A stretch of DNA of 64,000 nucleotides, taken from an uncultured bacterium (GTDB lineage Bacteria; Patescibacteriota; Minisyncoccia; UBA6257; 2-01-FULL-56-20). Positions within the stretch are counted from its first letter, which is position 1, and every line of letters starts with the position of its first letter. The notes below the pieces were generated by a model. It was not told the DNA's origin, made no database searches, and worked only from the letters and a program-made list of their open reading frames with translations. Positions 1,395 through 55,466 of the stretch are shown here, one piece after another. Made by a program: the position numbers and the translations under genes. The stretch covers positions 267,719-331,718 of the forward strand of contig CAWJQC010000007.1 of NCBI GenBank assembly GCA_963844965.1, written 5' to 3'.

Positions 1395-2066
1395 TTAAAC
1401 CGTGGCATTTTTTCGAACCCGTTCTTGTTTTTTGAGACAATCAACGAGATATTTTACGATCTTTTCGCAATTTTCTTCCGGAGTGGTGCTCACAAAAACT
1501 GCGACATTATGCTTCCTGGCGTCATCAATAAGGAAGTTTTGCTGTATCTTTTCAATGCGCCAGATCTTTTCGCTTAGCCAAGCCTTCTGAACGCCATGGC
1601 GCCTGTCGAATTTCTTCGCCAGAAGTTCCTTGTGGTGAGCGTGGTTTCTGGCGATAAGCAAGATGTGGAATACCCTTGCTTCCGGGATGTTTTGGTATAG
1701 GGACGGGAGAAGATGCACTCCTTCAATCATTGTGTTTTCCCCGACTCTAATGATATTTTTTCGGATAATCGCCCTGGCGCCTCTCCGCAACGCGCGGCAG
1801 TGGCCGAGAAAACCTTTCGCGAAATTGCTTTCTGTGGACTTGCCGAACAATCTCCAGCGGTTATGGCTTCTGCCTTGTATAATCGGCCGGCGGTCGTAAA
1901 GGCGCATGACGTCGCGTATTTCGTCCATGCCGATGACGGTGGCGAACCTGAGGGCAGCGGCGAGCAGCACGGCCGTTGACGATTTTCTGGTCCCGGCCAT
2001 GCCGCAGATGAGGATCAATACCGGCCTCTTTCCTTCCGTGAATTTCTTCACGAGCCATTTGTTCAT
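1395..2066 (-). CDS. P-loop kinase, 2-phosphoglycerate-kinase-like / AAA_33 family
   Basis: 223 aa. Walker A ICGMAGTRKSS followed by ...VIGMDEIRDVMR, typical of 2-PGK-like/zeta-like P-loop kinases. Last gene of a tightly packed minus-strand operon. Confidence 0.5.
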   Translation of the reverse strand: MNKWLVKKFTEGKRPVLILICGMAGTRKSSTAVLLAAALRFATVIGMDEIRDVMRLYDRRPIIQGRSHNRWRLFGKSTESNFAKGFLGHCRALRRGARAIIRKNIIRVGENTMIEGVHLLPSLYQNIPEARVFHILLIARNHAHHKELLAKKFDRRHGVQKAWLSEKIWRIEKIQQNFLIDDARKHNVAVFVSTTPEENCEKIVKYLVDCLKKQERVRKNATV

Positions 2067-2701
2067 TTATGCCTCCTTTCGCTTAGCGGTGCATCTTTTC
2101 AATTTTCGCAAGACCATCGCTAGTGCGCAATAAGCATTTACATCGGTCTTTTTCGCGAGTTCAAGGAACGCTTCCGCTTCTTTTATCCAGCGGGGAAATT
2201 TAGCGCGATTGGGATTTGATCGCGGTATGAGCGGGGCGCGCCTTATCGTGTCATACTTGTCGGCAATGCCAAGGAGTTTTATTCCCCGGCTTCCGTTGCG
2301 GACAAAATCATTGAAGAACCGCGCCTTGAGGATTTTCTTCTCGGCTTCGGTTTCGTGGGCTTCTGGCATCCGAGTTACTCCTTTAACGATATCGTGTGTT
2401 TCGGGACGAATAGGTGCTCAATCGTTTCCAGCGCAACGCCGCCGTCTTCCACGACGTCGTGCAGAAGGGCGGCGGCAAGCAGATGGTAATCGCGGACACG
2501 GAACGTTTCAAAGAGAAAATTGAACACGGCGAGCGGATGGACGAAGTACGGATATGATTCAATTCCGAATTTTTTCTGCCCCCGATGCGCCGCTTCAGCC
2601 ATGTTGTATGCCCGCCAGAGCGCCGATTGTTCGGCGCAGGTAAGTTGCCTGGCGTTCTTCATGAATCGGCGCTTTGCGGCTTTGAGCGATGGGTAACGCA
2701 T
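2067..2701 (-). CDS. HD-domain (p)ppGpp-hydrolase-like protein (SpoT/RelA hydrolase motif), split into two ORFs by an apparent 1-nt indel
   Basis: ORF 2375..2701 contains HRGQ...YPYFVHPLAV...ALLHDVVEDGG, the signature of RelA/SpoT HD hydrolase domains. The abutting ORF 2067..2369 (5 nt gap, different frame) reads KLLGIADKYDTIRRA..., matching the continuing KLADRLHNMRTL helix. Confidence 0.5.
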
Positions 2702-2722
2702 GCGGCCTCCTTTCTTTGCGGG

Positions 2723-3922
2723 CTAAAACCCGAAGTGATTTAGAAGAATTGCTTTAAGATCCATTTTCCGCAACGATTGCCAGAAAATCTTATGCGAAAG
2801 CTTTTTCTTTCTGCGGATTTTTTCTTCCTCGGTCACTTTGCCGCCCATTGAGTGCGCGAGAGTGCCGTGGCGGTCGCTATAGGGGAAGATTTTCACCTTG
2901 TTGAAGTGGAATTTATCTAAGACTGCGGAGGTCGCAAGAAAGTCCGCTTCGGTTTCGCCCGGAAATCCGACGATGATGTGGGTGTTGATCTTGAGGCGAG
3001 GATTTGCCTCCCGGATGCGCTCAAGAAGAGGGAGCACGCGTTCCATGGCATACGGCCGCTGCATCAGGTTGAGAATCCTTTGACTGCCGCTTTCAATGGG
3101 AATGGTGATGAAGATAATTTTTGGCGAGGAAAGCGCCGCGAAAAGCCGTTTTTCGTATCTAACAAGCGCGGCTGGATTGAATTCGGTGAGCACCAATCTG
3201 AAGTCCTGTTTCATCGCGAGGATTTGCTCTAGAAGATCGGCGATGCTCTCGCCGCGGTCTTGGCCGAACATTCCTACGTCATCTGCGTTGAGGGAAAAAA
3301 TACAGTATCCTTCCTCAAGACCGCACAGGAATTCACGCATAATATCCGCTGTTGGCTTTGATACCAGTTTGCCGCGGGCAAGCCGTTCGGCGCAGTAGGT
3401 ACAGGTTCCGAGGCATCCTTCTGAAATTTTGAGATGGAAGACTTTTTCCTTGTCGTAGAGATACGTAAAGTAATCGTCGCGCAGGAACACGCGGTTCAGC
3501 AGCCGCATCAATCTTCCGCCGCGAGACCACTCCCTATGCACTTTGTGACCTATCTTGCGTTCGGCACGACTGAGATTGAACATATTTATCGCTTCTTCCA
3601 GATTTCGGCCGGAGAAAAATCTCCCTTCGGCATTTATCTCGCGCAATCTTTGAGGATTGATGTCGGGCAGACAGCCGAAAACGACCACCTCCTGGTTTTT
3701 TCGTTTGGCGTTGAGGAGCTTCGTGATCTCGCTGACGGCTTTTTCTTCGGCGCTTTCCATGAACGCGCAGCTGTTGATGAGGATGATATCTGCTTCGTTC
3801 GCGCTTGGCGCTTCAATCCAGTTGTTCGCGCTGAGCAGTTCTTTCACGTCCTCTCCACAGAGCATCAGTCGGACGCACACATTCTCGTTGACCAGGTGAA
3901 ATTTCCGCGGAAGTTTGCCCAT
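2723..3922 (-). CDS. radical SAM methylthiotransferase, MiaB/RimO (MTTase) family
   Basis: 399 aa. N-terminal MTTase domain (ILINSCAF...), radical SAM cluster motif CLGTCTYC, and overall MiaB/RimO-like layout. Confidence 0.7.
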   Translation of the reverse strand: MGKLPRKFHLVNENVCVRLMLCGEDVKELLSANNWIEAPSANEADIILINSCAFMESAEEKAVSEITKLLNAKRKNQEVVVFGCLPDINPQRLREINAEGRFFSGRNLEEAINMFNLSRAERKIGHKVHREWSRGGRLMRLLNRVFLRDDYFTYLYDKEKVFHLKISEGCLGTCTYCAERLARGKLVSKPTADIMREFLCGLEEGYCIFSLNADDVGMFGQDRGESIADLLEQILAMKQDFRLVLTEFNPAALVRYEKRLFAALSSPKIIFITIPIESGSQRILNLMQRPYAMERVLPLLERIREANPRLKINTHIIVGFPGETEADFLATSAVLDKFHFNKVKIFPYSDRHGTLAHSMGGKVTEEEKIRRKKKLSHKIFWQSLRKMDLKAILLNHFGF

Positions 3923-8750: not shown

Positions 8751-10773
8751 ATGAAGAATACTTCCTGGACGGTGGGTGTTTTGGTGGTTTGTGTTTCTGT
8801 AAGTTTGCTTGCGGCGTCAAGCGCTTACGCGGCTACGCCGACGCTTTCGCTCGCGGTGACGAGCGGGGATTCTGTGCAGATAAACGTGATCGGCGATTCG
8901 AATTTTCCGGTCGTGTTTTATTACAATGTCGGCAGTTCTTCCGGAACGAACACAACGACGCTCGGTAGTACGAACTCCAGCGGCGTTTTTTCAACAACGA
9001 TAAGCACGGGCGCGTACGCGATAAACTCCAGCTATCCGGTATATGTCGTAGTGGATGGTCAGCAGTCAGCTACACAAACCTGGCCTTACGGCGCCAGTAC
9101 TTCCTCGGGTACAAGCGGTACGCCAGTACTCAGCCAGACAAGCGTTACGGTCGGTATCGGGCAGTCAGTGACCGTGACTTCGCAGGGAGGCAGCGGCATC
9201 TATTTGGTGTCCAATTCCAATTCTTCTGTGGCCGCCGCTTACGTATCTGGGACACAGGTTGTTGTTACCGGAAGCCAGCTGGGTTCAACGACAATGACAA
9301 TCTGTTATGTGGGTACCGCTTCCAATTGCACGAATTTGTATGTGAATGTGCAGAGCGGAACCGTGCAGGCGCTCACGTTCAGCCCGAACAACATTTCCTT
9401 ATCGGTCGGTGGCAGTCAATCTGTGACCATAAGCGGCGGGAGTGGAACGTATAGTTTGTCTTCCAATTCAAACTCCAGCGCCGTTTCCGTGAATTTATCG
9501 GGAAACACGCTTACGGTGACAGCCATCGCGGCCGGGAGCGCCAATATAACGGCATGCGACACGTCGGGAAATTGTAGTGTCTTATATGTGACGGTGGGCG
9601 GAAGCTCAACAAGCGGTTCCTTGTCTTTCAGCCAGACGAATCCGTCTATAGCGGTCGGACAGGTTATAAGCGTGAGTGTTTACGGCGGAAGCGGCTATTA
9701 CGTGTCCGCTAACACGAACTCCGGCATCGCCTCGCAAACGCTGAATGGCAACACACTCTCAATCTCTGGTCTGGCAGCCGGAGCGACGACGATCACCGTA
9801 TGTTCGGCGGTGAACGGCTGCGGCTACCTTTATGTCACCGTCGGTTCGTCATCCGGCACGAGCCAGACAATTACTTTTAGCCAGACGAATCCGTCCATAG
9901 CGGTCGGACAGGTTATAAGCGTGAGTGTTTACGGCGGGAGCGGGTATTACGTAACGGGCAACACGAATTCCAGTGTCGCTTCGCAAGCCCTTAATGGGAG
10001 CATACTTTCCATCTCCGGATTGGCAAGTGGCGCCACGACTATCACGGTATGTTCCGTGGCTAATGGCTGTGGTTCGATTTACGTCACGGTCGGTTCGTCG
10101 TCGGGCTCGAGTATGGCCATCACCTTTGGCACGACCAATCCCACTATTACAACGGGGCAAAGTATGAACATCTCGCTTTCTGGCGGTTCCGGTTATTTCG
10201 TTTCGTCTAATCCAAGTACGAATATTGCGCAGGCAAGCGTTACGGGCAATACGCTTGCGCTCTATGGCGTGGGCGTCGGCTCCGATTCGCTTACGATTTG
10301 CGCGAGTTCCGGCGGCTGCAACACGCTTTACGTCACAGCTGACAAGCGTGACGACCGTTCCGACCACCACGCAGACACAGCAAACAGTTGTTTCGAGCGC
10401 TTGGATAACCGAGATCCAGACAATGCAGACCCAGCTCACAAATATCCTCGCCCAAATCCAAACTTTACAAAGTAACCTTGCAAATCTTCTTACGCAAGTT
10501 ACCGCCGGCGCGCAAAGTCCAAGCGTAAGTGGCACGACGACCGCGCAATCCAGCGGCTATAAATTCTACAGCCCGCTCTCGCTTGGCTCGAGCGGCGCAG
10601 ACGTCACGGCATTGCAGACCCTCTTGGCCGCGAAGGGATATTACACTGGTTCCATAACCGGTTACTACGGTACGGCGACGATGGACGCGGTGATGGAATA
10701 CCAGACGGCTCATGGTATCACGCCGCTCGGCAACGTGGGTCCCGCCACCCGCGCGGCGCTGAACGCGGAATAA
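8751..10773 (+). CDS. cell-surface protein with tandem BIG2-like Ig repeats and a C-terminal peptidoglycan-binding domain (frameshift near 10330)
   Basis: ORF 8751..10475 has a signal peptide, S/T/G-rich sequence and at least 5 tandem ~80-aa repeats (…SQTNPSIAVGQVISVSVYGGSGYY…ATTITVCS..NGCG.LYVTV). Overlapping ORF 10225..10773 in another frame continues the sequence and ends in a PG_binding_1 motif (LSLGSSGADVTALQTLLAAKGYYTGSITGYYGTATMDAVMEYQ). Confidence 0.65.
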
Positions 10774-14140: not shown

Positions 14141-14220
14141 TCCGCGGAGCCATTTTTCATTTTCCGCCCGCACTGCCTACCTTCTCTAATTTTTGCCAAA
14201 GGCGGACAAGCCTGCCTGCC
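14141..14220. repeat. ~80-bp intergenic repeat, copy A (upstream of the metallopeptidase gene)
   Basis: tccgcggagccatttttcattttccgcccgcactgcctaccttctctaatttttgccaaaggcggacaagcctgcctgcc is ~88% identical to copy B at 14757..14836. It is followed by TAGAAT 8 nt before the ATG. Confidence 0.6.
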
Positions 14221-14756: not shown

Positions 14757-14836
14757 TCCGCGGAGCCGTTTTCATTTTCCGCTCATGCCGTTTACCTTCT
14801 CTAATTTCCGTCAAAGGCGGACAAGTCTGCCTGCCC
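14757..14836. repeat. ~80-bp intergenic repeat, copy B (upstream of the small membrane ORF/cyclophilin)
   Basis: See copy A. Followed ~70 nt later by TAAAAT immediately before the ATG at 14914. Confidence 0.6.
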
Positions 14837-21888: not shown

Positions 21889-22015
21889 TTTGCTATTTTG
21901 TCTGAAAAATAGGCCCTGACTCAAAGTCGAGGTTTTTATTTGTTGTCGGCGGGACATTTTGGATTTTTCCAGTAGTAAATGCTAAACTAAATCTACAACT
22001 TAATATGCCTAAACC

Positions 22016-22129
22016 GCCGAAATTTCGGTAACATGGCGTAAAAATCCCATCCCTGATACTAAGCTCCTCGCTTAGCTACTCAGGGATGGGTCGCGTCTCG
22101 AAAGAGGCGTGGGTAACCGAAAGGTTGCC
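22016..22129 (+). promoter_or_regulatory. highly structured palindromic leader upstream of the MTase-nuclease gene (nested perfect hairpins, GNRA-type loops, repeated CCCATCCCTG motif)
   Basis: ccgaaatttcgg; cccatccctga[tactaagctcctcgcttagcta]tcagggatggg (11-bp perfect stem with inner stem); gcgtctcgaaagaggcg; ggtaaccgaaaggttgcc. CCCATCCCTG recurs at 22176, 4 nt before the ATG. Confidence 0.35.
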
Positions 22130-22188: not shown

Positions 22189-23787
22189 ATGCCCAACAAG
22201 CTTTACTTCGGAGATAATCTTGATATCCTCCGCGACAAAATCGCCGACAATTCGGTTGATTTGATTTACCTTGACCCACCGTTCAACTCCAATCGCAACT
22301 ACAACGTACTTTTTAAAGAGGGATTGCAGGATAGTCCAGCACAAGTTCAAGCATTTGAGGATAGCTGGCACTGGACGCGCGAAGCGCAGGCGACTTTTGA
22401 GGAACTAATGGGTGTGCGGCCATCAAAGACAAAAATCAACGCCGACATCGTTAATTTAGCGCAGGCGTTAGAGAAGCTAGTCGGCCATAACGATATGCTG
22501 GCTTATCTCACAATGATGACGATTCGCTTAATCGAACTAAGGCGTGTTCTGAAGCCAACCGGAAGTATTTACCTTCATTGCGACCCAACCGCCAGCCATT
22601 ATTTGAAAGTTGTGTTGGACACCGTTTTTGGGAAACAAAATTTTTTGAATGAAGTCATTTGGAGATACGAAGGACCTCAATCGCCAAGCTTAATTAAATT
22701 TGCGACGAAGCACGATATCGTTCTTCGTTATGCGAGTGATATAAAATCTTGCAAAGCCGTCGAATTATATTATTTTGAAAAGATATCAGTTGAAGATGCA
22801 AATTTTAAGCAGGATGAGAATGGGCGTTATTTCTATACTCTACCCAAAGGAGACTATACCGAAGAAAGCATAAAAAGATTAGAACAAGAAGGTCGTATAT
22901 TCAGGACCTCTAAGGGAACAGTGCGTATAAAGTATTTTGTAGAAAAAACTTCGGATGGGAACTTTTTGCGTAAAAAGAAAATACCAGACGTTTGGGACGA
23001 CATACCTTCGCTTGGGCTTACTGCCCAATCGAAAGAAGTTCTTGGTTATCCGACCCAAAAACCCGAAGCACTTTTGGAAAGAATAATCAGAGCATCTTCA
23101 AAAGAAGGCGACTTAGTTCTTGACCCATTCTGCGGTTGTGGCACGACGGTCTCCGTCGCTGAGCGGCTAAAAAGGAATTGGGTTGGTATTGATATTACGA
23201 TGCTTGCTATTAATTTGATTCGCCATCGCCTCGCGAAACAATATCCGAACATAGAAATTTTAGTGGATGGCAGGCCAAAAGATATTCCCGCAGCCGGGGC
23301 GCTTTTCAAAAAAGACCCGTTTGAATTTGAATACTGGGCACTGGATTTAGTTGACGCTGTTCCTGCTCAAAGCAAAACCAAAGAAAATATGCGTGGCGCA
23401 GACAAGGGGATTGACGGCGTGATTAACTTTGTCAGAGACATAAAAAATGGCGAGCAAGTTTACGGTAAGTTGGTTGTTCAGGTGAAGGGTGGTGCGGTTC
23501 ACCGCGACCAAATTGCTACGCTTAAGGGTGATATAGAGCGTGAGCGGGCCGACGGCGGAATTTTTGTGACGCTCGAGAAGCCAACCCAGCCAATGAAAGA
23601 AGAGGCAGTAAGCACCGGAAGTTATAAGGTGGGTTTTGGCAAAGGAGAATACCCGAAAATTCAGATAGTAACCATAGAGGATTTATTAGATAATAAGAAG
23701 CCTGAAGTTCCTATTGCCGCCCTGCCTTATTATAAAGAGGCCAAAGTTGCTAAATCCGAAAACAGGTCAAAAAAATTAGGAATATAG
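22189..23787 (+). CDS. DNA methyltransferase (N6A/N4C, beta-class) fused to a C-terminal Mrr-type restriction endonuclease catalytic domain
   Basis: DLIYLDPPFNSNRNYN (motif IV), then LVLDPFCGCGTTVSVAERL…WVGIDI (motif I). The C-terminal ~180 aa (GADKGIDGVINF…GKLVVQVKGG…ADGGIFVTLEKPTQPMKEEA) matches the Mrr_cat PD-(D/E)xK block. Confidence 0.75.
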   Translation: MPNKLYFGDNLDILRDKIADNSVDLIYLDPPFNSNRNYNVLFKEGLQDSPAQVQAFEDSWHWTREAQATFEELMGVRPSKTKINADIVNLAQALEKLVGHNDMLAYLTMMTIRLIELRRVLKPTGSIYLHCDPTASHYLKVVLDTVFGKQNFLNEVIWRYEGPQSPSLIKFATKHDIVLRYASDIKSCKAVELYYFEKISVEDANFKQDENGRYFYTLPKGDYTEESIKRLEQEGRIFRTSKGTVRIKYFVEKTSDGNFLRKKKIPDVWDDIPSLGLTAQSKEVLGYPTQKPEALLERIIRASSKEGDLVLDPFCGCGTTVSVAERLKRNWVGIDITMLAINLIRHRLAKQYPNIEILVDGRPKDIPAAGALFKKDPFEFEYWALDLVDAVPAQSKTKENMRGADKGIDGVINFVRDIKNGEQVYGKLVVQVKGGAVHRDQIATLKGDIERERADGGIFVTLEKPTQPMKEEAVSTGSYKVGFGKGEYPKIQIVTIEDLLDNKKPEVPIAALPYYKEAKVAKSENRSKKLGI

Positions 23788-23889
23788 GCGGTACTTGACA
23801 CCGTTATCCACTCGTATATACTTAAACTATTCCAAAGACCGCAGGGCATCCGCCGATGAGGCGGCATAGGACCCGCGATAGGAATCGTT

Positions 23890-23971
23890 GGAGTAATCGC
23901 TAATAATGCGAATATCGGCAAATAATGCAAATAAAATTCGCATTATTTGAAAAAGATTAGCATTATTCGCG
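23890..23971. repeat. ~85-bp repeat family copy 1 (arrays of GCGAATAATGC-like sub-repeats in direct and inverted orientation), within the rplJ leader
   Basis: ~85% identical to 28967..29048. Internal inverted repeats aataaaattcgcattatt / attagcattattcgcg. Confidence 0.6.
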
Positions 23972-24018
23972 GACACTCCTCGATGGCGGCCTTTGGAGAA
24001 AAGGTCGTTTTTTATTCC

Positions 24019-24102
24019 TTACGAAAATACGAAAACATACGAAATTACGAAAAAGAGGTTTGAGCCCTTTCGTACGTTCGTACAATTTCGTACTTTCGTA
24101 AG
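24019..24102 (+). promoter_or_regulatory. rplJ leader: inverted array of heptamer repeats (4x TACGAAA ... 4x TTTCGTA) forming a long imperfect hairpin
   Basis: cttacgaaaatacgaaaacatacgaaattacgaaaaag…ctttcgtacgttcgtacaatttcgtactttcgtaag, ending 9 nt before the rplJ ATG. Preceded at ~23806 by TTGACA-N16-TATACT. Confidence 0.5.
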
Positions 24103-24110
24103 AGTTAGCG

Positions 24111-24635
24111 ATGAAATCGCGAACGCAAAAACAGGAAGAGTTAAAAAGGGGGAAAGAGCTTTTAGACAAGTCGCAAGTTTTGGTTTTCACGGACTTCACC
24201 AAAGTCAAAGCCGAGGACTTGCGGCGGATGCGGCGCGAACTCAATAAGGTGGGAGCGAATTTTCTTGTCATCAAGAAGCGGCTCTTGGCGCTGCTTCTCA
24301 AGGAGCGGAAGGTGGACTTTGACACGAAGCAGTTCAAGTTGTCCATCGGCACAATTTTTTCGGAAGGGGACATGGAAAAAATCAGCGGGCCGGTCTATAA
24401 GTTCTTCTCGGCATTGGAAATTTCCGAGGGCAAGGAGAAAGACATGTGGATAAAGCATATTCTCGGCGGTTATGATCTCAAGAATAAAAACTTGATAGAC
24501 GCGCTGGAGGTCGTTACCATCGGCAAACTGCCGCCGCGCGAAGTGCTTCTCGGCCAGCTGTTGGGCACGCTCGTCGCGCCGCTAAGGTCGTTCATGTATA
24601 TCTTGAGCGAGAAATCCAAAGTAGCGGCAAAATAA
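24111..24635 (+). CDS. rplJ: 50S ribosomal protein L10
   Basis: 174 aa with a typical L10 N-terminus (…KQEELKRGKELLDKSQVLVFTDFTKVKAEDLRRMRREL…) directly upstream of rplL. Confidence 0.85.
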   Translation: MKSRTQKQEELKRGKELLDKSQVLVFTDFTKVKAEDLRRMRRELNKVGANFLVIKKRLLALLLKERKVDFDTKQFKLSIGTIFSEGDMEKISGPVYKFFSALEISEGKEKDMWIKHILGGYDLKNKNLIDALEVVTIGKLPPREVLLGQLLGTLVAPLRSFMYILSEKSKVAAK

Positions 24636-24712
24636 TAAGTCTCCAGATGTGAGAAGCTGCATAGCCCCGTTTGGTGTGGGGGAAAGGTCGTAAGAATCAA
24701 AGACAACATAAC

Positions 24713-25075
24713 ATGGCAAAATTTGACGAATTAATATCTAAAATAGAAAAATTAACCGTGAGCGAGCTCGCGGAACTGGTGAAAGAACTTGAAACAAAGT
24801 TTGGCATTACGGCCGCCGCTCCGGTCGCGGCTGGCGGAGCAGCGGCCGCTCCCGCGGAAGAGAAAACGAGTTTCAGCGTTCTTCTCAAAGCCGCCGGAGC
24901 GCAGAAGCTCAACGTCATCAAAGCGGTCCGCGAAGTGACAACGCTTGGCCTTAAGGAAGCGAAAGATTTGGTTGAAGGCGCGCCGAAAATGGTGAAAGAG
25001 AACGTCAAGAAAGAGGAAGCGGACGAAGCAAAAAAGAAACTGGAAGCCGCAGGCGCAACCGTGGAGATTCAATAG
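24713..25075 (+). CDS. rplL: 50S ribosomal protein L7/L12
   Basis: [31 protein letters not shown]…Ala-rich hinge…[23 protein letters not shown]…GATVEIQ, the canonical L7/L12. The ORF track starts at 24671; the internal Met at 24713 is the conserved start. Confidence 0.9.
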
Positions 25076-25128
25076 AAGGTGGAAGTCACAGACACAATTT
25101 TGGGATTCAATGGAGATAGACCCCGACC

Positions 25129-25680
25129 TTGCGTCGGGGTCTAAGGTTTTTGAGAAACCTTGCCAGCCGACATTTTATCTGCTACCCTGGTTTTAGTTCT
25201 TCTTTGGCACGTATATTCGGTCGGAGGTATAGCATGAAAGGACCATATTCGCCGGTTGACAGAGCGTCTGTCGTTTCTTTGTTGATATTGAATAATATCT
25301 ACCGCAATCAATGCGAGGAGAACACGATACGAAAAATTTCCGGTATTTTGCACGATCTTCGAGAGAAGGGTGTGCACATTACAGACCTGGGGCTTGATAG
25401 AAGGATTGGGGGTGACTATTACTCCGAATTTGTGGATTCTACTGTTTACCTCCTCAATTGGAAGCGTTCCACGACGAGCGTGAGCGGTTTCAACCTGAAC
25501 CAGGAAGGAATTAAGTTCTGCGGCAGCAATGTGCTTGATGAATTGAATGGTCCGCACAAAGCAGAATTTCTGGAAATCGCGAGAATGCTCAAAATTGACA
25601 TGCCGGAGTTGCTCAAAAACTTGCGCAATTCAACGGCCGAGCAGGAGGAATTATTTCCCAAAAACGTGCCCCGAGGTTGA
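25129..25680 (+). CDS. hypothetical protein
   Basis: 183 aa ORF (probable start at the internal Met ~25234) with no recognisable motif. Confidence 0.3.
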   Translation: MRRGLRFLRNLASRHFICYPGFSSSLARIFGRRYSMKGPYSPVDRASVVSLLILNNIYRNQCEENTIRKISGILHDLREKGVHITDLGLDRRIGGDYYSEFVDSTVYLLNWKRSTTSVSGFNLNQEGIKFCGSNVLDELNGPHKAEFLEIARMLKIDMPELLKNLRNSTAEQEELFPKNVPRG

Positions 25681-25759
25681 ATCCGGGGCATTTTTGTTTT
25701 AGAATGTTCCCGTAGGCGCGTTTAGGGCCGATGTCGGCCAATAAATTAATAATAAACAA

Positions 25760-25831
25760 GGGCGTTTAGCTCAGTGGTAGAGCGTTCGCTTCACATGCGA
25801 AAGGCCGCTGGTCCGATCCCAGCAACGCCCA
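25760..25831 (+). tRNA. tRNA-Val (anticodon CAC)
   Basis: Cloverleaf: acceptor GGGCGTT/AACGCCC, D arm GCTC-AGTGGTA-GAGC, anticodon stem TTCGC/GCGAA with loop TTCACAT, T arm GCTGG-TCCGATC-CCAGC. CCA is not encoded. Confidence 0.8.
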
Positions 25832-26000
25832 CATTGGTTGAGCATCAAATTTTTTTATAATCGGTTTTTTTTTGGGTTCGTTACCGGAATTTTTAACCGA
25901 ATGGACGGTGGCCGGCTGAAATTTTCCGTTTCGGAAGTTTTCCGAGTTATGCACAGAATTCACTTTTTATTTTTGAAAATACTTTTATAATTATTTGTAA

Positions 26001-27319
26001 ATGGCAAACTCTGCGAATCACAACGGAGAAAATTATAAAAAAAAGTTTTTATTTGTGTCTTTGGAAAGTTTGAGCGGGGACCTGGCGTGGAACGTTTTGA
26101 AAGAAGGAAACCAGGTCAAAATTTATATAGAGAGAAAAGAGGATGTTGACGTCTACAATGGTTTTCTGGAAAAAGTTGACGACTGGAAGAAATTCGTTGA
26201 CTGGGCGGACGTGGTCGTTTTTGACGATGTTGAGTTCGGCGGGTTCGCCGACAAGCTGAGGCAAAAAGGTAAGCTGGTCATCGGCGGCTCGGAATACACC
26301 GACCGTCTTGAGATTGATAGGGAGTTCGGGCAGACGGAACTCAAAAAATACGGAGTGAGCACCCTGCCGAGCTGGCAATTTTCCGATTACGACGAGGCGA
26401 TAAAATTCATACGCCAGAATCGCGACAGGTACGTTTTCAAACCGAGCGGAAATACGCCGAGCGACGGGAAAGGTTTGCTTTTTCTCGGGCAGGACGAGGA
26501 CGGCCACGACATGATAGAACTTCTGGAGGGGAACAAGGACGTCTGGAAAAAGAAAGCGCCAGTGTTCCTTCTGCAGAAATTCATTTCTGGAGTTGAAGTC
26601 GCGGTCGGCGCGTTCTTCAACGGCTCGGATTTTATCTATCCGATAAATATCAATTTTGAACACAAGCGGGTTTTTCCCGGGAACATCGGTCCCTTTGCCG
26701 GCGAGATGGGAACTTTAATGTTCTGGGATTCGCCGAACGTGCTTTTCCACGAGACGCTTGAAAAATTATTGCCGGCTCTAAAGGAATCAAAGTACGTGGG
26801 GTATGCGGATATCAATTGCATCGTGAACGGCCGCGGCATTTATCCTTTGGAATGGACGTGCCGTTTCGGTACCCGACGATCCAGATACAGTCGGAGGGGA
26901 TCTTAATGCCGGCGAGCGAGTGGTTGTGGCGCCTCACGAAGGGCGAGAATTTTGAACTTAAAACGAAGCGAGGTTTTCAGGTGGGAATGAGAATTCTCGT
27001 GCCCACGTATCTCACACGCGACAACGATCCGGAAGTTGAGGTCTACAGGGACCTCGCCGTGGCTTTCAAAAACCCGGAAAATCGCGAAGGCATTCATATT
27101 GAGGACATAAAGAACGACAAAGGAGTGTGGCGTATCGCCGGAACGAGCGGCTGCGTGCTTGTAGTGACCGGAACCGGGACAACCGTGGAAGAAGCGAGAA
27201 GGGTTATGTACAACAGAGCGAAGAATATAATGATACCCGGTATGTTTTACAGGACAGATATCGGTTTAAGCTGGGGCTCGGACAGCGATAAACTTCAAAC
27301 CTGGAGGTATTTGGATTGA
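26001..27319 (+). CDS. PurD-like ATP-grasp protein (frameshift near 26870), immediately upstream of mraZ
   Basis: ORF 26001..26906: …FEHKRVFPGNIGPFAGEMGTLMFWDSP… matches PurD DHKR..GD.GPNTGGMGAY. ORF 26816..27319 in another frame gives RFGYPTIQ… and GIHIEDIKNDKGVWRIAGTSGCVLVVTGTGTTVEEARRVMYNRAKNIMIPGMFYRTDIG, a PurD-like C-domain. The N-terminal ~150 aa is atypical. Confidence 0.55.
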
Positions 27320-27526
27320 TAAAAGCTTGATAGTTGATAATCTGTGGATATCTGACGGCCTCGCTTGATGATTTGTCTTGTAAAATAAGGATTCTTTCGC
27401 CGCTTCGGCGGCGATTTTTTGTTTTTGACACGCTTCGGCGGTGGTGTATCGTTAAATGAAAGTGGTGAATTGTGGATAAAGCTGGGGATAAATGCCACTT
27501 TCTGTGCAGAACTTTCCTTCAAACCA

Positions 27527-27958
27527 ATGCTACTCGGCGAATATCAACACAATTTGGATTCCAAAGGTCGGGTGGCAGTTCCGGCCAAATTCAAAGAAAA
27601 ACTTGCGGCCGGCGCCATCATTACGCGCGGGTTGGATAACTGCCTGTTTGTTTTCGCGTCCAAGGAGTGGGATGTCTTGGCGCAGAAATTGGTGGCTTTG
27701 CCTCTCGCTCAGGCGAATTCGCGGGCGTTCGTGCGGCTGATGCTCGCGGGCGCGATGGACGCGACGCTGGACAATCAGGGCCGCATATTGATCCCGGATT
27801 ACTTGCGGAAGTACGCCGACCTTAAGAAGCAGGTGATAATCGCGGGTTTATACAACCGCGTGGAGGTTTGGGACGCCGAGAAGTGGAGCGAGTATAAGAA
27901 GAAAACGGAGGGAGCGTCCGAGGAAATAGCGGAAAAGCTGGGTGAGCTCGGTATATAA
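27527..27958 (+). CDS. mraZ: transcriptional regulator MraZ
   Basis: MLLGEYQHNLDSKGRVAVPAKF… and a second SpoVT/AbrB-like half (…LDNQGRILIPDYLRKYADL…). Start taken at the internal Met of ORF 27419..27958. Confidence 0.85.
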   Translation: MLLGEYQHNLDSKGRVAVPAKFKEKLAAGAIITRGLDNCLFVFASKEWDVLAQKLVALPLAQANSRAFVRLMLAGAMDATLDNQGRILIPDYLRKYADLKKQVIIAGLYNRVEVWDAEKWSEYKKKTEGASEEIAEKLGELGI

Positions 27959-27960
27959 AT

Positions 27961-28054
27961 TTCTAATTCCTAATTATTCTAATTGACCTAAGGAATGACC
28001 AATGAATAAATTTTTGAAAATTGGGAGTTTTTTAGAAATTAGAAATTAGATCAA
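27961..28054. promoter_or_regulatory. mraZ-rsmH intergenic inverted array of octamer repeats (3x TTCTAATT ... 4x AATTAGAA)
   Basis: ttctaattcctaattattctaattgacc…tagaaattagaaattagatcaattagaaattc, ending 10 nt before the rsmH ATG. Confidence 0.45.
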
Positions 28055-28064
28055 TTAGAAATTC

Positions 28065-28973
28065 ATGCACCACCATCCGGTTCTTTTAAAAGAAATCATA
28101 AAATTTTTAGATCCGAAACCCGGCGAATTCATTGTTGACGGCACGGTTGACGGAGGAGGACACGGCGCCGAAATTTTTGAAAAGATTTTACCGAATGGAA
28201 GACTTTTGGGCGTAGACCTGGATGCCGATCTCCTGGAAAAAGCTTCGCGGGCAGTTTCCGCGAAAGTCAAAAGCCGGAAATCAAATATCAACAGCAATTT
28301 GATTTTGGTTCGGGGCAACTACGCCGACCTACCGGATATTTTGGAAGAAAAAAAGTTGCCGAAGGCCGACGGTTTGCTTCTGGATCTGGGATTTTCCTCC
28401 GAACAATTGGAGAACGCCGAAAAAAGGGGATTCAGCTTTGAAAAAAATGAGCCGCTTTTGATGACCTACAGCGCCGGGCGGAAGCCCGTCAAAGAAATTC
28501 TCACGGAACTTGACGCCAAGGAGCTTGCGAAAATCATCTTTGAACTGAGCGGTGAGAAGTTCGCGATGCGGATAGCGCGGGCGATAAAAGAACGGGGGCG
28601 GACGAGAGCAGTAGAGACAAGCGGTGAGCTCGCGGAAGCGGTCCGGGGCGCGGTGCCCAAAAATTATGAGCGCGGCCGCATTGATCCCGCGACGAGAACT
28701 TTTCAGGCGCTGCGGATTTACGCGAACGACGAACTAGGGAATCTTAAAAAAGTTTTGGACAGATTGGGAGAAATTCTGGAACCGGGCGGGAGAGTGGTGA
28801 TTATAAGTTTCCATTCGCTTGAGGATCGAATAGTGAAGGATAATTTTCGGAAGCTGGAGGAATCCGGAGAACTCCGGATTTTGACGAAGAAGCCGGTTCG
28901 CCCCGCGGAAGAGGAAATTTTGAAAAATCCGCGCAGCCGCTCAGCTAAACTGCGCGCCGCTATCATGGAGTAA
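28065..28973 (+). CDS. rsmH: 16S rRNA (cytosine1402-N4)-methyltransferase RsmH (MraW)
   Basis: HHPVLLKEII…DGTVDGGGHG…DLGFSSEQL…SFHSLEDRIVK, the conserved MraW motifs. It sits in the dcw cluster. Confidence 0.9.
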   Translation: MHHHPVLLKEIIKFLDPKPGEFIVDGTVDGGGHGAEIFEKILPNGRLLGVDLDADLLEKASRAVSAKVKSRKSNINSNLILVRGNYADLPDILEEKKLPKADGLLLDLGFSSEQLENAEKRGFSFEKNEPLLMTYSAGRKPVKEILTELDAKELAKIIFELSGEKFAMRIARAIKERGRTRAVETSGELAEAVRGAVPKNYERGRIDPATRTFQALRIYANDELGNLKKVLDRLGEILEPGGRVVIISFHSLEDRIVKDNFRKLEESGELRILTKKPVRPAEEEILKNPRSRSAKLRAAIME

Positions 28974-29048
28974 TCGCGAATAACGCGAATGATAGCAAAT
29001 AACGCGAATAAAATTCGCATTATTCAATAAAAATTAGCATTATTCGCG
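28967..29048. repeat. ~85-bp repeat family copy 2 (GCGAATAATGC sub-repeat array), rsmH-ftsL intergenic
   Basis: See copy 1 at 23890..23971. It begins at the rsmH stop codon. Confidence 0.6.
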
Positions 29049-29057
29049 AATACTCTA

Positions 29058-29393
29058 ATGACCTTTATCCAACCAAACAAAAACAGCGGCATTTTAAATA
29101 AAATTTTGGCTGTCCTTGTGATCTGCTCGGTTTTTAGTGGCGCGGCGCTAGTTGTGTTGTATAATAGGATAGTCAATTTTGACCACGGCCTTGATAAGGC
29201 GAAAGCCGAGCTGGCTAGCCTGCAATCGCAGAACGCCGACGCTAAAGATAAAATCTTTGAATTGCTTGATACCGACAAGGATTCGGCGGCATTGAAGGAT
29301 TACGGTCTGGTTGAAGATAAAAATCCGCAATATTTAGAAATTTCCTCCAAAGACGAGAATTCACAACAATGGTCATACGCTTCTGGACGTTGA
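29058..29393 (+). CDS. FtsL-like cell division membrane protein
   Basis: 111 aa, single TM (ILAVLVICSVFSGAALVVLY) then a coiled coil. Position between rsmH and ftsI is conserved for ftsL. Confidence 0.45.
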   Translation: MTFIQPNKNSGILNKILAVLVICSVFSGAALVVLYNRIVNFDHGLDKAKAELASLQSQNADAKDKIFELLDTDKDSAALKDYGLVEDKNPQYLEISSKDENSQQWSYASGR

Positions 29394-31004
29394 TTTTGGG
29401 CTTAACCGCGGCCTATTCTTTGCTTTTATTTCGTCTTTACGATCTGCAAGTAGTTAAGGGCGATTATTATCATGCGCGCTCCGAATCGCAATATGTCGCC
29501 CAGGATGCCGCCTCCTCGAACCGAGGCGTTATTTATTTTACGGACAAAAATAACAGCGAAATTCCGGCAACCCTGAACAAGGATTTCCCGATCATATACG
29601 CGGTGCCTAAGGATGTTGAAGATCCATCGGAGGCCGCGAACACTCTTGCCGGGATCCTGAATAAGCCGGTAAGCGATCTCGCCGCGACTCTGTCCAAAAC
29701 CAATGATTCTTACGAAGTTTTACTAAGGAAGGCGGATGCCGACACGGCAAAAGCCGTGGACGATTTGAAAATTAATGGGATTTACGTTGATACTGAAGTC
29801 AGGCGCTATTATCCGTTTAACGACATGGCGTCGCAGGTTTTGGGCTACGTCGGGCCGAAGAGCGACGGTTCGGGGAATAAGGGCTACTATGGCGTGGAAG
29901 GATTTTATGATTCCGAACTCGCGGGCGGGGACGCCGTTGAGGTTGACGGCGCGAGTGGACCTAAATCCGGCGCCGATATCACCCTTACGATTGATCCGAA
30001 CATACAGAGTGAAGCGGAAAAAATTTTAGAGAATTTACTTTCAACTTATAACGCGAGCGGCGGCAGTTTTGTTGTTGAAGATCCGCAAACTGGGAAAATT
30101 TTAGCGATGGGCGGCCTTCCCGATTTTGACCCGAACAACTACGGCAGTGCTCCGATGGCCGATTTTCTGAATCCAACGGTGCAACAGATCTACGAACCAG
30201 GTCTCTGTTTTCAAGGTCATTACGATGGCGACTGGTATTGATTCCGGGAAGATTACTCCGGACACGACTTACTTTGACACGGGCAGCGTTACCCTGAACG
30301 GCAGGACGATACAGAATTACGACCTGAAAACTCATGGTCCTTACGGCAAAGCGACGATGACGAACGTGATAGAGCACTCTATAAACACCGGCGCGGTTTT
30401 CGCGGAGAGGCAAATTGGCAGGGATATTTTTACCGAGTATCTGAACAATTTCGGTTTTGCCGAAAAGACGGGCATAGATTTACCGGGGGAACTAAAGGGA
30501 GATTTAAGGCAACTGTCTCCACAGGCGCGGGATATTGCTTTCGCGACGGCTTCCTATGGCCAAGGAGTAGCCGTGACGCCCATTGAACTCGTGAATGCGT
30601 TCGCGGCCGTCGCGAACGGCGGCAATCTGATGAGGCCATACGTGAACGCCGCCCTGGAACCAAAAGTTATAAGGCGCATAATAACCGAGAGTACTGCGCA
30701 AGCCGTGACCGGAATGATGATTTCCGCGGTGGACAAAGCCGGCATCGCCAGTATCGCGAACTATTCTGTCGCCGGAAAAACGGGTAGTGCCTACATTCCG
30801 GATTTCAAGAATGGCGGCTACACAAATAAACTTATTGACAGCTACGCCGGCTTCGGGCCCACGAGCAACCCGAGGTTCGTTATACTCTTTAAGGTGGATG
30901 ATCTGGACGAATCTCAGCTTGCGGCCACCATCATTGTTCCGGCTTTCCGCGAGATGGCGCAATTTATGTTGAATTACTACAACATAGCGCCGGACAGATT
31001 ATGA
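29369..31004 (+). CDS. ftsI: peptidoglycan D,D-transpeptidase FtsI / PBP (1-nt insertion near 30203 splits the gene at the SXXK active-site region)
   Basis: ORF 29369..30241: TM, PBP dimerisation domain, RRYYPFNDMASQVLGYVG, …IYEPG then garbled. ORF 30225..31004: MATGIDSGKITPD…HSINTG (SxN)…AGKTGSA (KTG). Removing the c in ggtCtctg restores EPGSVFKVITMATGID. Confidence 0.8.
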
Positions 31005-31048
31005 AATGAAGTGGACATTTTGATATTTAAATTTTACATTTAAATCAT

Positions 31049-32336
31049 ATGTCGGATACGAGCTTGCAAACATTGCGCTGGCTTCTGAAAAAATTGGCGC
31101 AACTTACGATTTGGCGCTACCAGCCGGGCGTCATCGGTATTACCGGAAGCGTCGGCAAGACGTCCACGAAACTTGCTCTTAGGGCGGTGCTGGAAAAAGA
31201 GCGGCGCATGCGGGCGTCTTCGGGCAACTTGAACAACGACCTTGGTTTGCCGCTCGCCGTTTTGGGCGGCTGGAGCCAGTCGGACTTGAGGCTGGTGAGC
31301 CGCGAACAGCCGCCACACACGGCGCGCGTCAGTAAGGCGTTTTTTTGGCTGAAGGTTGTTTTGGTTTCGGTTTGGCGGCTGGTTTTCGTGAACAGAAGAA
31401 GCTATCCCGAAATCCTGGTCTTGGAGTACGGTGCCGACCGGCCGGGAGATCTGAAACAGCTTCTTGAGATAGCGCGTCCGAACATAAGCATTATCACCGC
31501 TATCGGCGAGACACCGGTACACGTGGAATTTTTTGCCGGACCGGAAGAGGTCGCGCGGGAAAAAGCGCGGCTGATAGAATGCTTGCCGGTGGCCGGCTTC
31601 GCTGTTCTCAATTATGATGACGAAACGGTTATGGAGTTGAAGGACAGGACGCGCGCGCATATCGCGACATTCGGTTTCGCGAGAGGAGCCGGAGTGCAGG
31701 TCACGCGGTTTGAGAACCGTTCCGAGGGCGGGCGGCCCCTTGGCATCTCTTTCAAACTTGAATATGGAGGAAATTTCGTTCCGGTGAGGATTGACGGCGT
31801 TTTCGGCAAATCGCAGGCCTATGCGGCCGCAGCCGCCGCTTCCATCGGTTTGATTTTCGGCATGAATCTCGTTAAAATTTCCGAAGCACTCAGGGACTAC
31901 AAGCCGGCCGATTCGCGCATGCAGCTTCTCCCAGGCGTTAAGTACGCCTACATTATTGATGACGCTTACAACGCGAGCCCGCTCTCCATGCACGCCGCGC
32001 TTGATGTTCTCCGCGGTCTGCCGGCAAAAAGGAAAATAGCGGTTCTCGGCGACATGCTGGATATTCGGCAAGTACGCTATTGAAGCACATGAGCGGGTGG
32101 GGCGTCTCGTCGCCGGATTCGCGGATATTTTGGTGACCGTGGGACCGAGGGCGAAGTTCATAGCCGAAGCCGCGCGCGAGGCAGGCATGCGCAAGAACAA
32201 TATTTATTCGTTTGACACGGCTGACGAAGCTACGAAGCCAGTTCAGGATTTTATAAGAAAAGGGGATTTGATTTTGGTGAAAGGCTCGCACGCGATGGAG
32301 CTTGAAAAGGTAGTGGAGGAGATTAAGGCCTTCTAG
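31049..32336 (+). CDS. murF: UDP-N-acetylmuramoyl-tripeptide--D-alanyl-D-alanine ligase MurF (1-nt insertion near 32062)
   Basis: GITGSVGKTSTK (Mur ligase P-loop), NLNNDLGLPLAVL, DDAYNASPLSM. Deleting one a in gatatt restores LGDMLDFGKYAIEAHERVGRLVAGFADILVTVG… in frame with ORF 32097..32336. Confidence 0.8.
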
Positions 32337-32438
32337 GTAGTGTAAAGTTTAAAAATCAAAATTTAAAATGACAATGTAAAATTTAAAAATTTAACTGCAA
32401 TTTTACATTTTGATATTTGCATTTTAAATTTTTGCGAT

Positions 32439-44081: not shown

Positions 44082-44377
44082 AGTTAGTTCTTCATTTCTA
44101 TCACGTTGAGCAGCTTTTCGCAAAAGATGAAGGGACGTCAGGAACCCTCAAAAAATATTGTCAAACTGGCTCCAAACGTGATACCTTTTAGGTAATTGAA
44201 TATCAGATAGATCGCCTAAACCACGCATTTTGCATGGCATGGCATTACGCAGAATCTCCCTTCCAGATACCAAACGCCACGTTTGGCGACTTCTGGAAGG
44301 GAGTCACTCCGAAAGGGGTGGGGCCGCAAGGCCCAAGCCAGCGTGGCGTTTTGTGTTCTCTATTTTAAAACAAACCC

Positions 44378-54707: not shown

Positions 54708-55466
54708 GTGAAGAAATTGCTTGTGGCTAACTGGAAACTAAATCCTCCGGGAGTCAGTGAGGCCGTTAGACTTGCCAAGATGGCCGATAGAAACGGCGTT
54801 GTGATTTGTCCGCCGTTTGTTTTTCTGTCGCGAATCAAAAAAGTTTTGAGGCGCGCCGCTTTGGGAGCGCAGGATGTCTTCTGGGAGGAGGGTGGCGCTT
54901 ACACTGGTGAGGTTTCGCCGATGATGCTGAAGAATCTCGGCACTAAATATGTCATAATTGGACATTCCGAGCGCCGCAGGTGGCTCAACGAAACCGATGA
55001 AATGGTTAATAAAAAAATTAAAGCCGCGCTTCATGTCGGATTAAAAGTTATTCTCTGCGTCGGCGAACCGCTTGCCGTGCGTCGCAGGGGTCTTGCCGCC
55101 GCCAAGAATTTCGTAAAGAGCCAGCTGTTAAAAGACTTAGCCGACATTCAAAAATCAAAAATCAAAAATTTAAAATTGAAAATCGTAGTGACTTACGAAC
55201 CTATTTGGGCGATAAGCGGTGGCCAGTACGGGCACATAACAGACAAGCCGGAAGACGTTGTTGAGATGGCTAGGTTTATAAAAAACTTTCTCCTTGTCTC
55301 TTGTCGCTTGTCCCATGTCGCTGTTTTGTACGGCGGCTCCGTGAATGGCAAAAACGCGGAAAGTTTTCTACAATACAATGAAATAGATGGCGCTCTTGTC
55401 GGGGGCGCAAGTCTGAAGGTTGGTGAATTTAAGAAAATAATTAAAATTGTTTCCAACTATGGATAG
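54708..55466 (+). CDS. tpiA: triosephosphate isomerase (with an in-frame AT-rich tandem-repeat insertion at ~55141-55190)
   Basis: VANWKLN…IIGHSERR…LCVGE…YEPIWAI…GGSV motifs. Insertion DIQKSKIKNLKLK is encoded by (caaaaat)x3-like repeats. Confidence 0.9.
   Translation: MKKLLVANWKLNPPGVSEAVRLAKMADRNGVVICPPFVFLSRIKKVLRRAALGAQDVFWEEGGAYTGEVSPMMLKNLGTKYVIIGHSERRRWLNETDEMVNKKIKAALHVGLKVILCVGEPLAVRRRGLAAAKNFVKSQLLKDLADIQKSKIKNLKLKIVVTYEPIWAISGGQYGHITDKPEDVVEMARFIKNFLLVSCRLSHVAVLYGGSVNGKNAESFLQYNEIDGALVGGASLKVGEFKKIIKIVSNYG

Follow-up and report, generated by a model that had tools for sequence, protein, structure and literature searches.

Palindromic elements before rplJ and rsmH in a candidate phyla radiation bacterium belong to families that recur beside unrelated genes

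Small palindromic repeats have been described from several groups of bacteria. In Proteobacteria, the repetitive extragenic palindromic sequences (REP), the bacterial interspersed mosaic elements (BIME) and the REP doublets forming hairpins (REPIN), which are associated with REP-associated tyrosine transposases (RAYT), are short imperfect extragenic palindromes that occur in multiple copies as hairpins of about 100 nt. Miniature inverted-repeat transposable elements (MITEs), such as the Neisseria Correia elements, ERIC and the cyanobacterial Nezha, are small and non-autonomous, and their transcripts form hairpins that are possible RNase targets. Rickettsia palindromic elements (RPE) are found in frame inside protein-coding genes. 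The Drosophila foldback (FB) transposons have inverted terminal arms made of short tandem repeats; they are eukaryotic, kilobase-scale and unrelated to the elements reported here, and the likeness is architectural only. Here, we analyzed a 64,000-nt stretch of DNA (the window) from an uncultured bacterium of the candidate phyla radiation (CPR; contig CAWJQC010000007.1, positions 267,719 to 331,718), in which hairpins with arms built from short repeat units lie directly before rplJ (element B) and rsmH (element C), within the leader upstream of rplJ (element A) and behind rsmH (element D). We consider it likely, with a probability of about 0.6, that A, B, C and D belong to several families of dispersed REP/REPIN-, MITE- or RPE-like palindromes, small in size (about 65-130 nt), in Parcubacteria-type CPR bacteria. 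The literature searched, the coverage of which is incomplete so that earlier work may exist, contained no description of such elements in CPR bacteria.

The original prediction had pointed to a TACGAAA array of four plus four inverted units before rplJ and to an array of three plus four units before rsmH. Both arrays are real, their positions were confirmed and their folds are far better than those of shuffled sequences. Element B has four exact TACGAAA units on the plus strand (at 24020, 24028, 24038 and 24046), whereas the minus strand carries three exact units (24068-74, 24086-92 and 24094-100) and one TTCGTA variant (24076-81). The window holds 17 copies of TACGAAA, 7 of them in an 81-nt stretch of element B, and the remaining 10 are about what is expected by chance (about 11). 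The RNA from 24016 to 24113 folds with -33.4 kcal/mol (z = -5.4, 0/200 shuffles equal), and the antisense RNA of element B is more stable (-41.1 kcal/mol). In element C, the left arm has TTCTAATT exactly at 27961 and 27977 and with one mismatch at 27968, and the right arm has AATTAGAA-type units at 28030, 28037, 28044 and 28053, of which only those at 28037 and 28053 are exact; the proposed three-plus-four design therefore stands if variants are counted, while exact copies number only two per side. Its fold reaches -30.0 kcal/mol (z = -4.9), with 0/200 shuffles as stable. Elements A and D were found by folding all intergenic regions and are 89% identical over 54 nt. A k-mer detector reported three to four inverted arrays in the window compared with a mean of 0.23 in Markov shuffles.

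The elements adjoin the coding sequences closely. The stem of B ends at 24102 and the rplJ ATG lies at 24111; the stem of C runs from 27958, the last base of the mraZ stop codon, to 28063, and the rsmH ATG is at 28065, with C occupying the entire mraZ|rsmH spacer. Element D occupies the spacer between rsmH and the next open reading frame (ORF), and its 5' end, GGAGTAA, includes the rsmH stop codon. The earlier observation that the arrays end near the start codons was thus correct (10 nt for rplJ, 0-4 nt for rsmH). That the hairpins occlude the ribosome-binding site is only loosely true: long imperfect hairpins do abut the starts, but the rplJ and rsmH start codons are unpaired in the predicted folds and no Shine-Dalgarno sequence is visible upstream of rsmH. 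A further palindrome had been noted before tRNA-Glu (region E). This region is indeed repeat-rich, but it has no significant hairpin (Table 1), and with its weak palindrome it is a doubtful member of any family. Part of region E has an 89% identical counterpart over 27 nt in a short AT-rich segment at 31015-31041, which lies between a penicillin-binding protein ORF and the gene that follows, and an array related to region E is present at L001:20246-20400 (L numbers denote loci compared with the window). Arrays A to E all lie within 8.5 kb (23890-32438), in one co-directional block of rplJL, dcw genes and tRNA-Glu.

Table 1 Features of the window discussed in the text, with positions counted from its first nucleotide
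Feature	Position	Strand	Basis
sigma-70-type promoter of the rplJL leader, TTGACA-16-TATACT	23795..23822	+	scan match 11/12
L10 (rplJ) leader (predicted), interrupted by element A	23814..24015	+	lineage covariance model
element A, GCGAATAA-family palindromic element	23890..23980	.	fold -32.5 kcal/mol, z = -6.6; homology
intrinsic terminator/attenuator hairpin and T-run ending the L10 leader	23985..24015 (hairpin 23985-24009)	+	terminator scan
element B, TACGAAA 4+4 palindromic element	24017..24103	.	unit starts 0, 8, 18, 26 in both arms
rplJ (ribosomal protein L10)	24111..24635	+	Pfam Ribosomal_L10
mraZ	27527..27958	+	Pfam MraZ; tblastn alignments
element C, CTAATT/TTAGAAA-family palindromic element	27958..28064	.	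fold z = -4.9; homology
rsmH	28065..28973	+	Pfam Methyltransf_5, 2.9e-82
element D, second GCGAATAA-family copy	28966..29056	.	fold -33.1 kcal/mol, z = -7.0; homology
region E, AT-rich short repeats 5' of tRNA-Glu	32337..32438	.	Tandem Repeats Finder arrays; fold z = -1.1

Copies of these elements are found on many other contigs. A search of metagenomes for three TACGAAA units separated by 0-3 nt returned at least 120 matches, and about 28 of the matches listed, on other CPR-type contigs, have the inverted 4+4 design of element B; two further B-type copies are present in the Moranbacteria metagenome-assembled genome (MAG) L021. This design has mirror symmetry, with four units per arm, unit starts spaced by 7-8, 9-11 and 8 nt in each arm and a short loop that varies, and the longest variants (L054, 156 nt; L102, 190 nt) add only extra hairpins. 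The spacer sequences and the asymmetry between left and right arms are common to six copies (L059a, L059b, L129, L132, L109 and L038), indicating that these are homologous copies and not convergent products of slippage. Element C aligns with L131:2267-2392 and L048:3868-3994, on two unrelated contigs, at a mean column identity of 72%, and its right end, ATTAGAAATTAGRTCAATTAGAAATTC, is identical to L131 at 26 of 27 positions. Since L131 and L048 had been fetched for their TACGAAA arrays, the TACGAAA and C families co-occur. The A/D family has at least two full copies in L013, one before rplJ and one between rplJ and rplL, along with two partial ones, and is also present in L005. Further families of the same build, with the units GAATTAGG, CGGATT, ATGACTA, GTATCAA and TAGAAT, occupy other loci. 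As a control, 83 viral contigs with direct TACGAAA arrays were inspected; none had an inverted partner, and there were neither 4+4 elements nor matches to the C family among them. The view that such arrays are peculiar to the lineage was borne out for CPR/Parcubacteria.

The same data speak to the possibility, raised from the outset, of a recent simple-sequence expansion, that is, of local heptamer slippage followed by inverted duplication, without family relationship or function. Direct TACGAAA arrays are widespread, and according to PMC4679880, which summarises Mrazek 2007, the long simple-sequence repeats of many bacteria are most often heptanucleotide repeats, with polymerase slippage as the proposed process. 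Against this stand the homologous copies in other organisms, the copy number fixed at 4+4 with conserved irregular spacing, the spacer sequences common to copies on different contigs and the alignment of the C and A/D families across genomes, and we regard slippage as the least probable of the explanations considered.

Two further loci carry several arrays each. At about 1410-1620 of L117, unit arrays are joined head to tail (TGACA-type, TACGAAA x4, GTGATAG x3, TTAGAAA x2 and TGTCAC x2), suggesting nesting or clustering among elements of different families. L081 (340-800 and 940-1900) has two palindromic arrays of the CGGATT family in frame within a DinB-like ORF. The first corresponds to an insertion of about 15 residues relative to a solved Pol IV (PDB 7yll), and the second is located near the C-terminus, outside the aligned region; both encode similar peptides (..DYGL..KSAIRN..). 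Downstream of this ORF follows about 1 kb of non-coding sequence, which contains three more array elements, and then a 23S-rRNA-IVP/bAvd-like gene.

The original prediction had placed the rplJ array in the position of the L10 autoregulatory leader. Our analysis points to a leader of the canonical type that lies upstream of element B and is separate from it. A lineage covariance model (R1), which was built from five relatives only and left the window out, gave a single match in the window, at 23814-24023 (31.1 bits, E = 2.4e-6), with an 88-nt insertion at the site of element A; the match touches only the first 4 nt of element B, via the unpaired 3' tail of the model. The Rfam model L10_leader (RF00557) matches the orthologous leader at L014:3592-3728 above its gathering score (48.6 bits). 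Over the region in the window, Rfam searches at gathering and permissive thresholds returned only tRNAs, LOOT RNA and meaningless matches to miRNA-precursor hairpins, and element B matches neither RF00557 nor R1. The order 5' of rplJ is promoter, conserved leader starting TTCCAAAGACCGCAGG, element A, terminator hairpin and T-run, element B and ATG, with A inserted at the tip of the variable hairpin of the leader and B located 3' of the leader terminator. The promoter position 5' of the leader is conserved in L010, L014, L015 and L017, the terminator sequence GGCYTTTGGA..GCCGTTTTTT is conserved in relatives, and the whole promoter-leader-terminator unit is also present in L010, L013, L014, L015 and L017. 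In nine relatives examined, no TACGAAA array is present between the leader terminator and the rplJ ATG; their spacers range from roughly 15 to 140 nt, and that of L013 contains the A/D-family element mentioned above. The array is not conserved at this position in these relatives, an outcome that had been named in advance as speaking against a function of the array there.

For rsmH, 22 species-level relatives were compared. The mraZ|rsmH spacer is bimodal, with at most 21 nt in 11 genomes and 61-134 nt in the other 11, and the rsmH|next-ORF spacer is likewise bimodal; such a distribution is expected for the presence or absence of an insert. Ten of the 11 long mraZ|rsmH spacers are AT-rich and 6 fold with z <= -3.0, and the genomes with long spacers carry non-homologous arrays.

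Across all loci, 53 elements could be classified by context: 47 were in co-directional, 4 in convergent and 2 in divergent spacers, compared with a baseline of 185, 28 and 43 in the same loci. As a rule they leave only a few to about 20 nt between themselves and the neighboring stop and start, and the flanking genes are varied housekeeping genes (rpsM|rpsK, rpoA|rplQ, rpsD|rpoA, rpsF|ssb, infB, clpP, mreB and ABC transporters). Copies of one family are found in both orientations relative to the flanking genes.

It is therefore very improbable that the hairpins are gene-specific translational-control structures, or arrays for binding a regulator, that serve rplJ (as L10 autoregulation) and rsmH. 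The hairpins end at most 10 nt from the start codons, and a weak AAGAG before rplJ is partly in the stem base, as such control would have it. However, the L10 leader is a distinct, conserved element that precedes B and is closed by its own terminator, the array at rplJ is missing from relatives, neither start codon is paired, the same families adjoin unrelated genes in both orientations, and the L131 copy of the C family is more than 40 nt from either flanking ORF and not at a start codon. Binding sites for a factor that recognizes the repeats, another suggestion made at first, are a possibility, but if real they would belong to a genome-wide factor and not to a regulator of rplJ or rsmH.

The distribution over spacers also resembles that of transcription terminators, which raises the possibility that the elements are orientation-independent terminators or attenuators. 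They are strong hairpins, found in co-directional and convergent spacers and depleted in divergent ones, but their stems are AU-rich, B and C lack a 3' U-tract, and the terminator scan, which called the hairpin at the end of the L10 leader, passed over B, C and D. The genome also has ordinary terminators with GC-rich stems and T-runs, one of them directly before B. Strong termination between leader and rplJ, or within the dcw and ribosomal-protein operons, would cut off essential genes. We consider a terminator function improbable.

The stem-closing pairs covary, and their complementarity is maintained. Positions -1/+1 are complementary in 22 of 25 elements (9.4 expected) and positions -2/+2 in 15 of 25 (7.1 expected), with CG (13), AU (4), UA (2) and GC (1) as the pair types at -1/+1. 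The units are invariant, and the spacers between them are mismatched yet conserved in length. The sense RNA is the more stable one in 9 of 24 elements and the antisense RNA in 15, so that this comparison, used as a G·U test for selection at the RNA level, gives no sign of selection on the sense-strand RNA.

In the main rival to our reading, the elements are functional cis-modules whose units or segmented hairpins are recognized by a conserved trans-acting factor, serving as sites of intercistronic processing, stability or translation coupling. Candidate factors would be an oligomeric RNA- or single-stranded-DNA-binding protein, RNase III or a domesticated HUH/RAYT-like enzyme. Invariant units with spacers free in sequence but fixed in length, covarying closing pairs, stem bases that precisely abut stop and start codons, persistence of the families across deeply diverged CPR lineages, presence in ribosomal-protein and rpoA operons and the scarcity of Shine-Dalgarno sequences at the genes of the window all fit such modules. 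Such modules fit less well with the many different unit sequences, which one sequence-specific factor cannot serve, with the occurrence in both orientations without a sense-strand G·U bias, with the frequently empty orthologous spacers and with the lack of an identified candidate factor. We regard this explanation as possible but considerably less likely than dispersed palindromic families; the two overlap, since REPs are both selfish and useful. Somewhat less likely still is a more specific proposal, namely that the elements form a new modular class of 'array-armed' hairpins in CPR/Parcubacteria, with several families, each with its own 7-9-nt unit but all of the same segmented-stem design, maintained by a dedicated factor as intercistronic modules. 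In operons poor in Shine-Dalgarno sequences, their possible roles would be processing, stability and the juxtaposition of stop and start codons. If true, ultra-small bacteria would have a REP/RAYT-like or RNA-operon system of their own.

In the reading that we favor, that of dispersed palindromic families, each arm repeats a 7-9-nt unit, specific to the family, three to five times (3-5 copies), spaced by short, length-conserved, non-complementary segments. The elements, which we take to be mobile, occupy permissive non-coding spots in either orientation, namely co-directional spacers and hairpin tips, and occasionally in-frame positions within genes. Element B would have landed between the terminator of the L10 leader and the rplJ start and A within the variable hairpin of the leader, and C and D fill the spacers on the two sides of rsmH. 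Because B lies in the 5' untranslated region of rplJ and C and D inside the dcw operon, the elements should be transcribed and fold. They may then be co-transcribed as passive, long AU-rich hairpins, the base of which would set the upstream stop codon or terminator beside the downstream start codon; this juxtaposition would explain why they are tolerated in compact operons that mostly lack Shine-Dalgarno sequences. Any effect on expression is probably generic, through mRNA processing, stability or translational coupling, and not gene-specific.

Several observations weigh against this reading. Neither a transposase nor a RAYT-like gene nor an autonomous parent turned up, although this is a weak test on a partial sample: a tblastn search of about 1 Mb of loci with an approximate IS200 TnpA query (an IS200/RAYT search) gave no match, and Pfam analysis of the ORFs bracketed by elements yielded ordinary genes (histidine kinase, glycosyltransferases and similar) and no transposase. 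Target-site duplication is not evident, as the flanks are complementary and not directly duplicated. No close relatives were found in which to compare filled and empty sites at high flank identity: the nearest other RsmH in the protein database is 71% identical, an exact-protein look-up returned no result, and when the loci were compared all against all by blastn, no close pair proved informative. Elements B and C are each single-copy in the window. The families are conserved across organisms whose RsmH proteins are only about 44-64% identical and are thus longer-lived than typical MITEs, pointing to selection or a dedicated partner protein. Finally, the clustering of all five elements of the window in 8.5 kb of essential operons is not what purely random insertion predicts.

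Other candidate explanations were tried and rejected. A role as DNA-uptake sequences was dismissed because outside the elements neither TACGAAA nor TTAGAAA is over-represented, and a role as promoters because the rplJ promoter is upstream of the leader and C contains only weak matches. The MraZ operator consists of direct repeats of a GTG-type box upstream of mraZ, and GTGGTGA boxes are present upstream of mraZ in L021; element C lies downstream of mraZ and its units are unrelated, which speaks against its being such an operator.

The window belongs to a CPR bacterium; in a collection of species-level genomes, its RsmH finds its best matches at 63-64% identity, in Candidatus Liptonbacteria and further Patescibacteria MAGs. 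The identity of rplL was confirmed with Pfam. The mraZ ORF opens at 27419, and homology begins near codon 37. At most predicted gene starts of the window a Shine-Dalgarno sequence is missing and the upstream sequence is A/T-rich (e.g., 20845, 26001 and 8631), and several genes have a TATAAT-like hexamer 7-10 nt upstream of the ATG, suggesting leaderless or very short-leader mRNAs. Strong GGAGG sites are found in the operon at 1395-3922. Two LOOT RNAs (RF03000) on the plus strand scored above the gathering threshold, at 22006-22129 (84.1 bits) and 44213-44334 (58.4 bits); the first has a 12-nt tandem repeat (21976-22004) immediately before it and a DNA methylase-Mrr fusion ORF (22189-23787) after it. 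Two genes are each split into two overlapping ORFs, purD (26001-26906, GARS_A; 26816-27319, GARS_C) and the gene for a penicillin-binding protein (29369-30241; 30225-31004), which could be due to frameshifts, pseudogenes or assembly errors.

Repeats of other kinds were also seen in the window. The tpiA gene (54708-55466) holds in-frame heptamer arrays, TCAAAAA x5 at 55148-55184, which falls on a 4-residue insertion relative to the triosephosphate isomerase (TIM) of T. maritima, and CTTGTCG x4 at 55293-55322. An AATTTCC x4 array (95% matching) is located at 62666-62695 within the coding ORF 62321-63061, and a 249-nt tandem duplication (2.0 copies, 80% identity) at 9625-10111 inside the long ORF 8751-10475. 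Two neighboring intergenic regions share a 67-nt direct repeat (14154-14220 and 14769-14835, 84% identity) with a CAAAGGCGGACAAG..CTGCCTGCC motif, and CCGCC..GGCGG hairpins resembling this motif adjoin array elements in L026, L082 and L131.

The genomes of CPR bacteria are regarded as extremely streamlined: their spacers are very short and repeats are few. The presence of several conserved palindromic families inside ribosomal-protein, rpoA and cell-division operons, and even in a riboregulatory leader, indicates that a repeat system comparable to REP is tolerated in these genomes, or put to use. Annotation pipelines will miss structured leaders that are split by inserts, as Rfam did for the L10 leader in the window, and in practice hairpins B and C should not be annotated as regulators of L10 or rsmH. 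The elements could be useful as lineage markers and offer a way into the study of post-transcriptional control in unculturable organisms.

Among known systems, the L10 leader (RF00557) shares with element B only the place 5' of rplJ, being a separate upstream element. Closer in appearance are the heptamer tandem repeats, the short tandemly repeated repetitive (STRR) sequences of cyanobacteria and the TAACTGA repeats of Beggiatoaceae: according to PMC4679880, these are 7-nt intergenic units directly 5' of start codons, including those of ribosomal-protein operons, in genes without Shine-Dalgarno sequences. They are head-to-tail direct arrays of variable copy number, with one indirect repeat only among 170 sets (PMC4679880), whereas the elements here are fixed 4+4 inverted arrays with irregular spacers. 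The RPEs are mirrored by the palindromic arrays in frame within the DinB-like ORF of L081, but their sequences are unrelated and their host group is different, and the in-frame copies here belong to only one other family on another contig. With MITEs, the elements share small size, insertion in intergenic regions and operons, presumably hairpin transcripts, and inverted-repeat ends, the whole arms being inverted repeats here; they differ in that no autonomous insertion sequence with the same ends was seen, no target-site duplication was detected, the flanks are complementary and the arms are internally periodic. REP and REPIN differ in that the arms here are AT-rich tandem arrays of 7-9-nt units in a streamlined CPR genome and that no RAYT gene was found in our partial sample, a weak test; the GTAG/CTAC tetranucleotide of REPs is absent from B and present in some family members only because C precedes the unit. 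Copy numbers are two to three per short contig in L059, L082, L100 and L021, and in the 64-kb window two for A/D and one each for B and C. In other respects the organization resembles REP, BIME and REPIN: the elements are imperfect extragenic hairpin palindromes in intergenic positions (z from -4.9 for C to -7.0 for D), lie in either orientation mainly in co-directional or convergent spacers, would be co-transcribed with their neighbors and persist as families across species.

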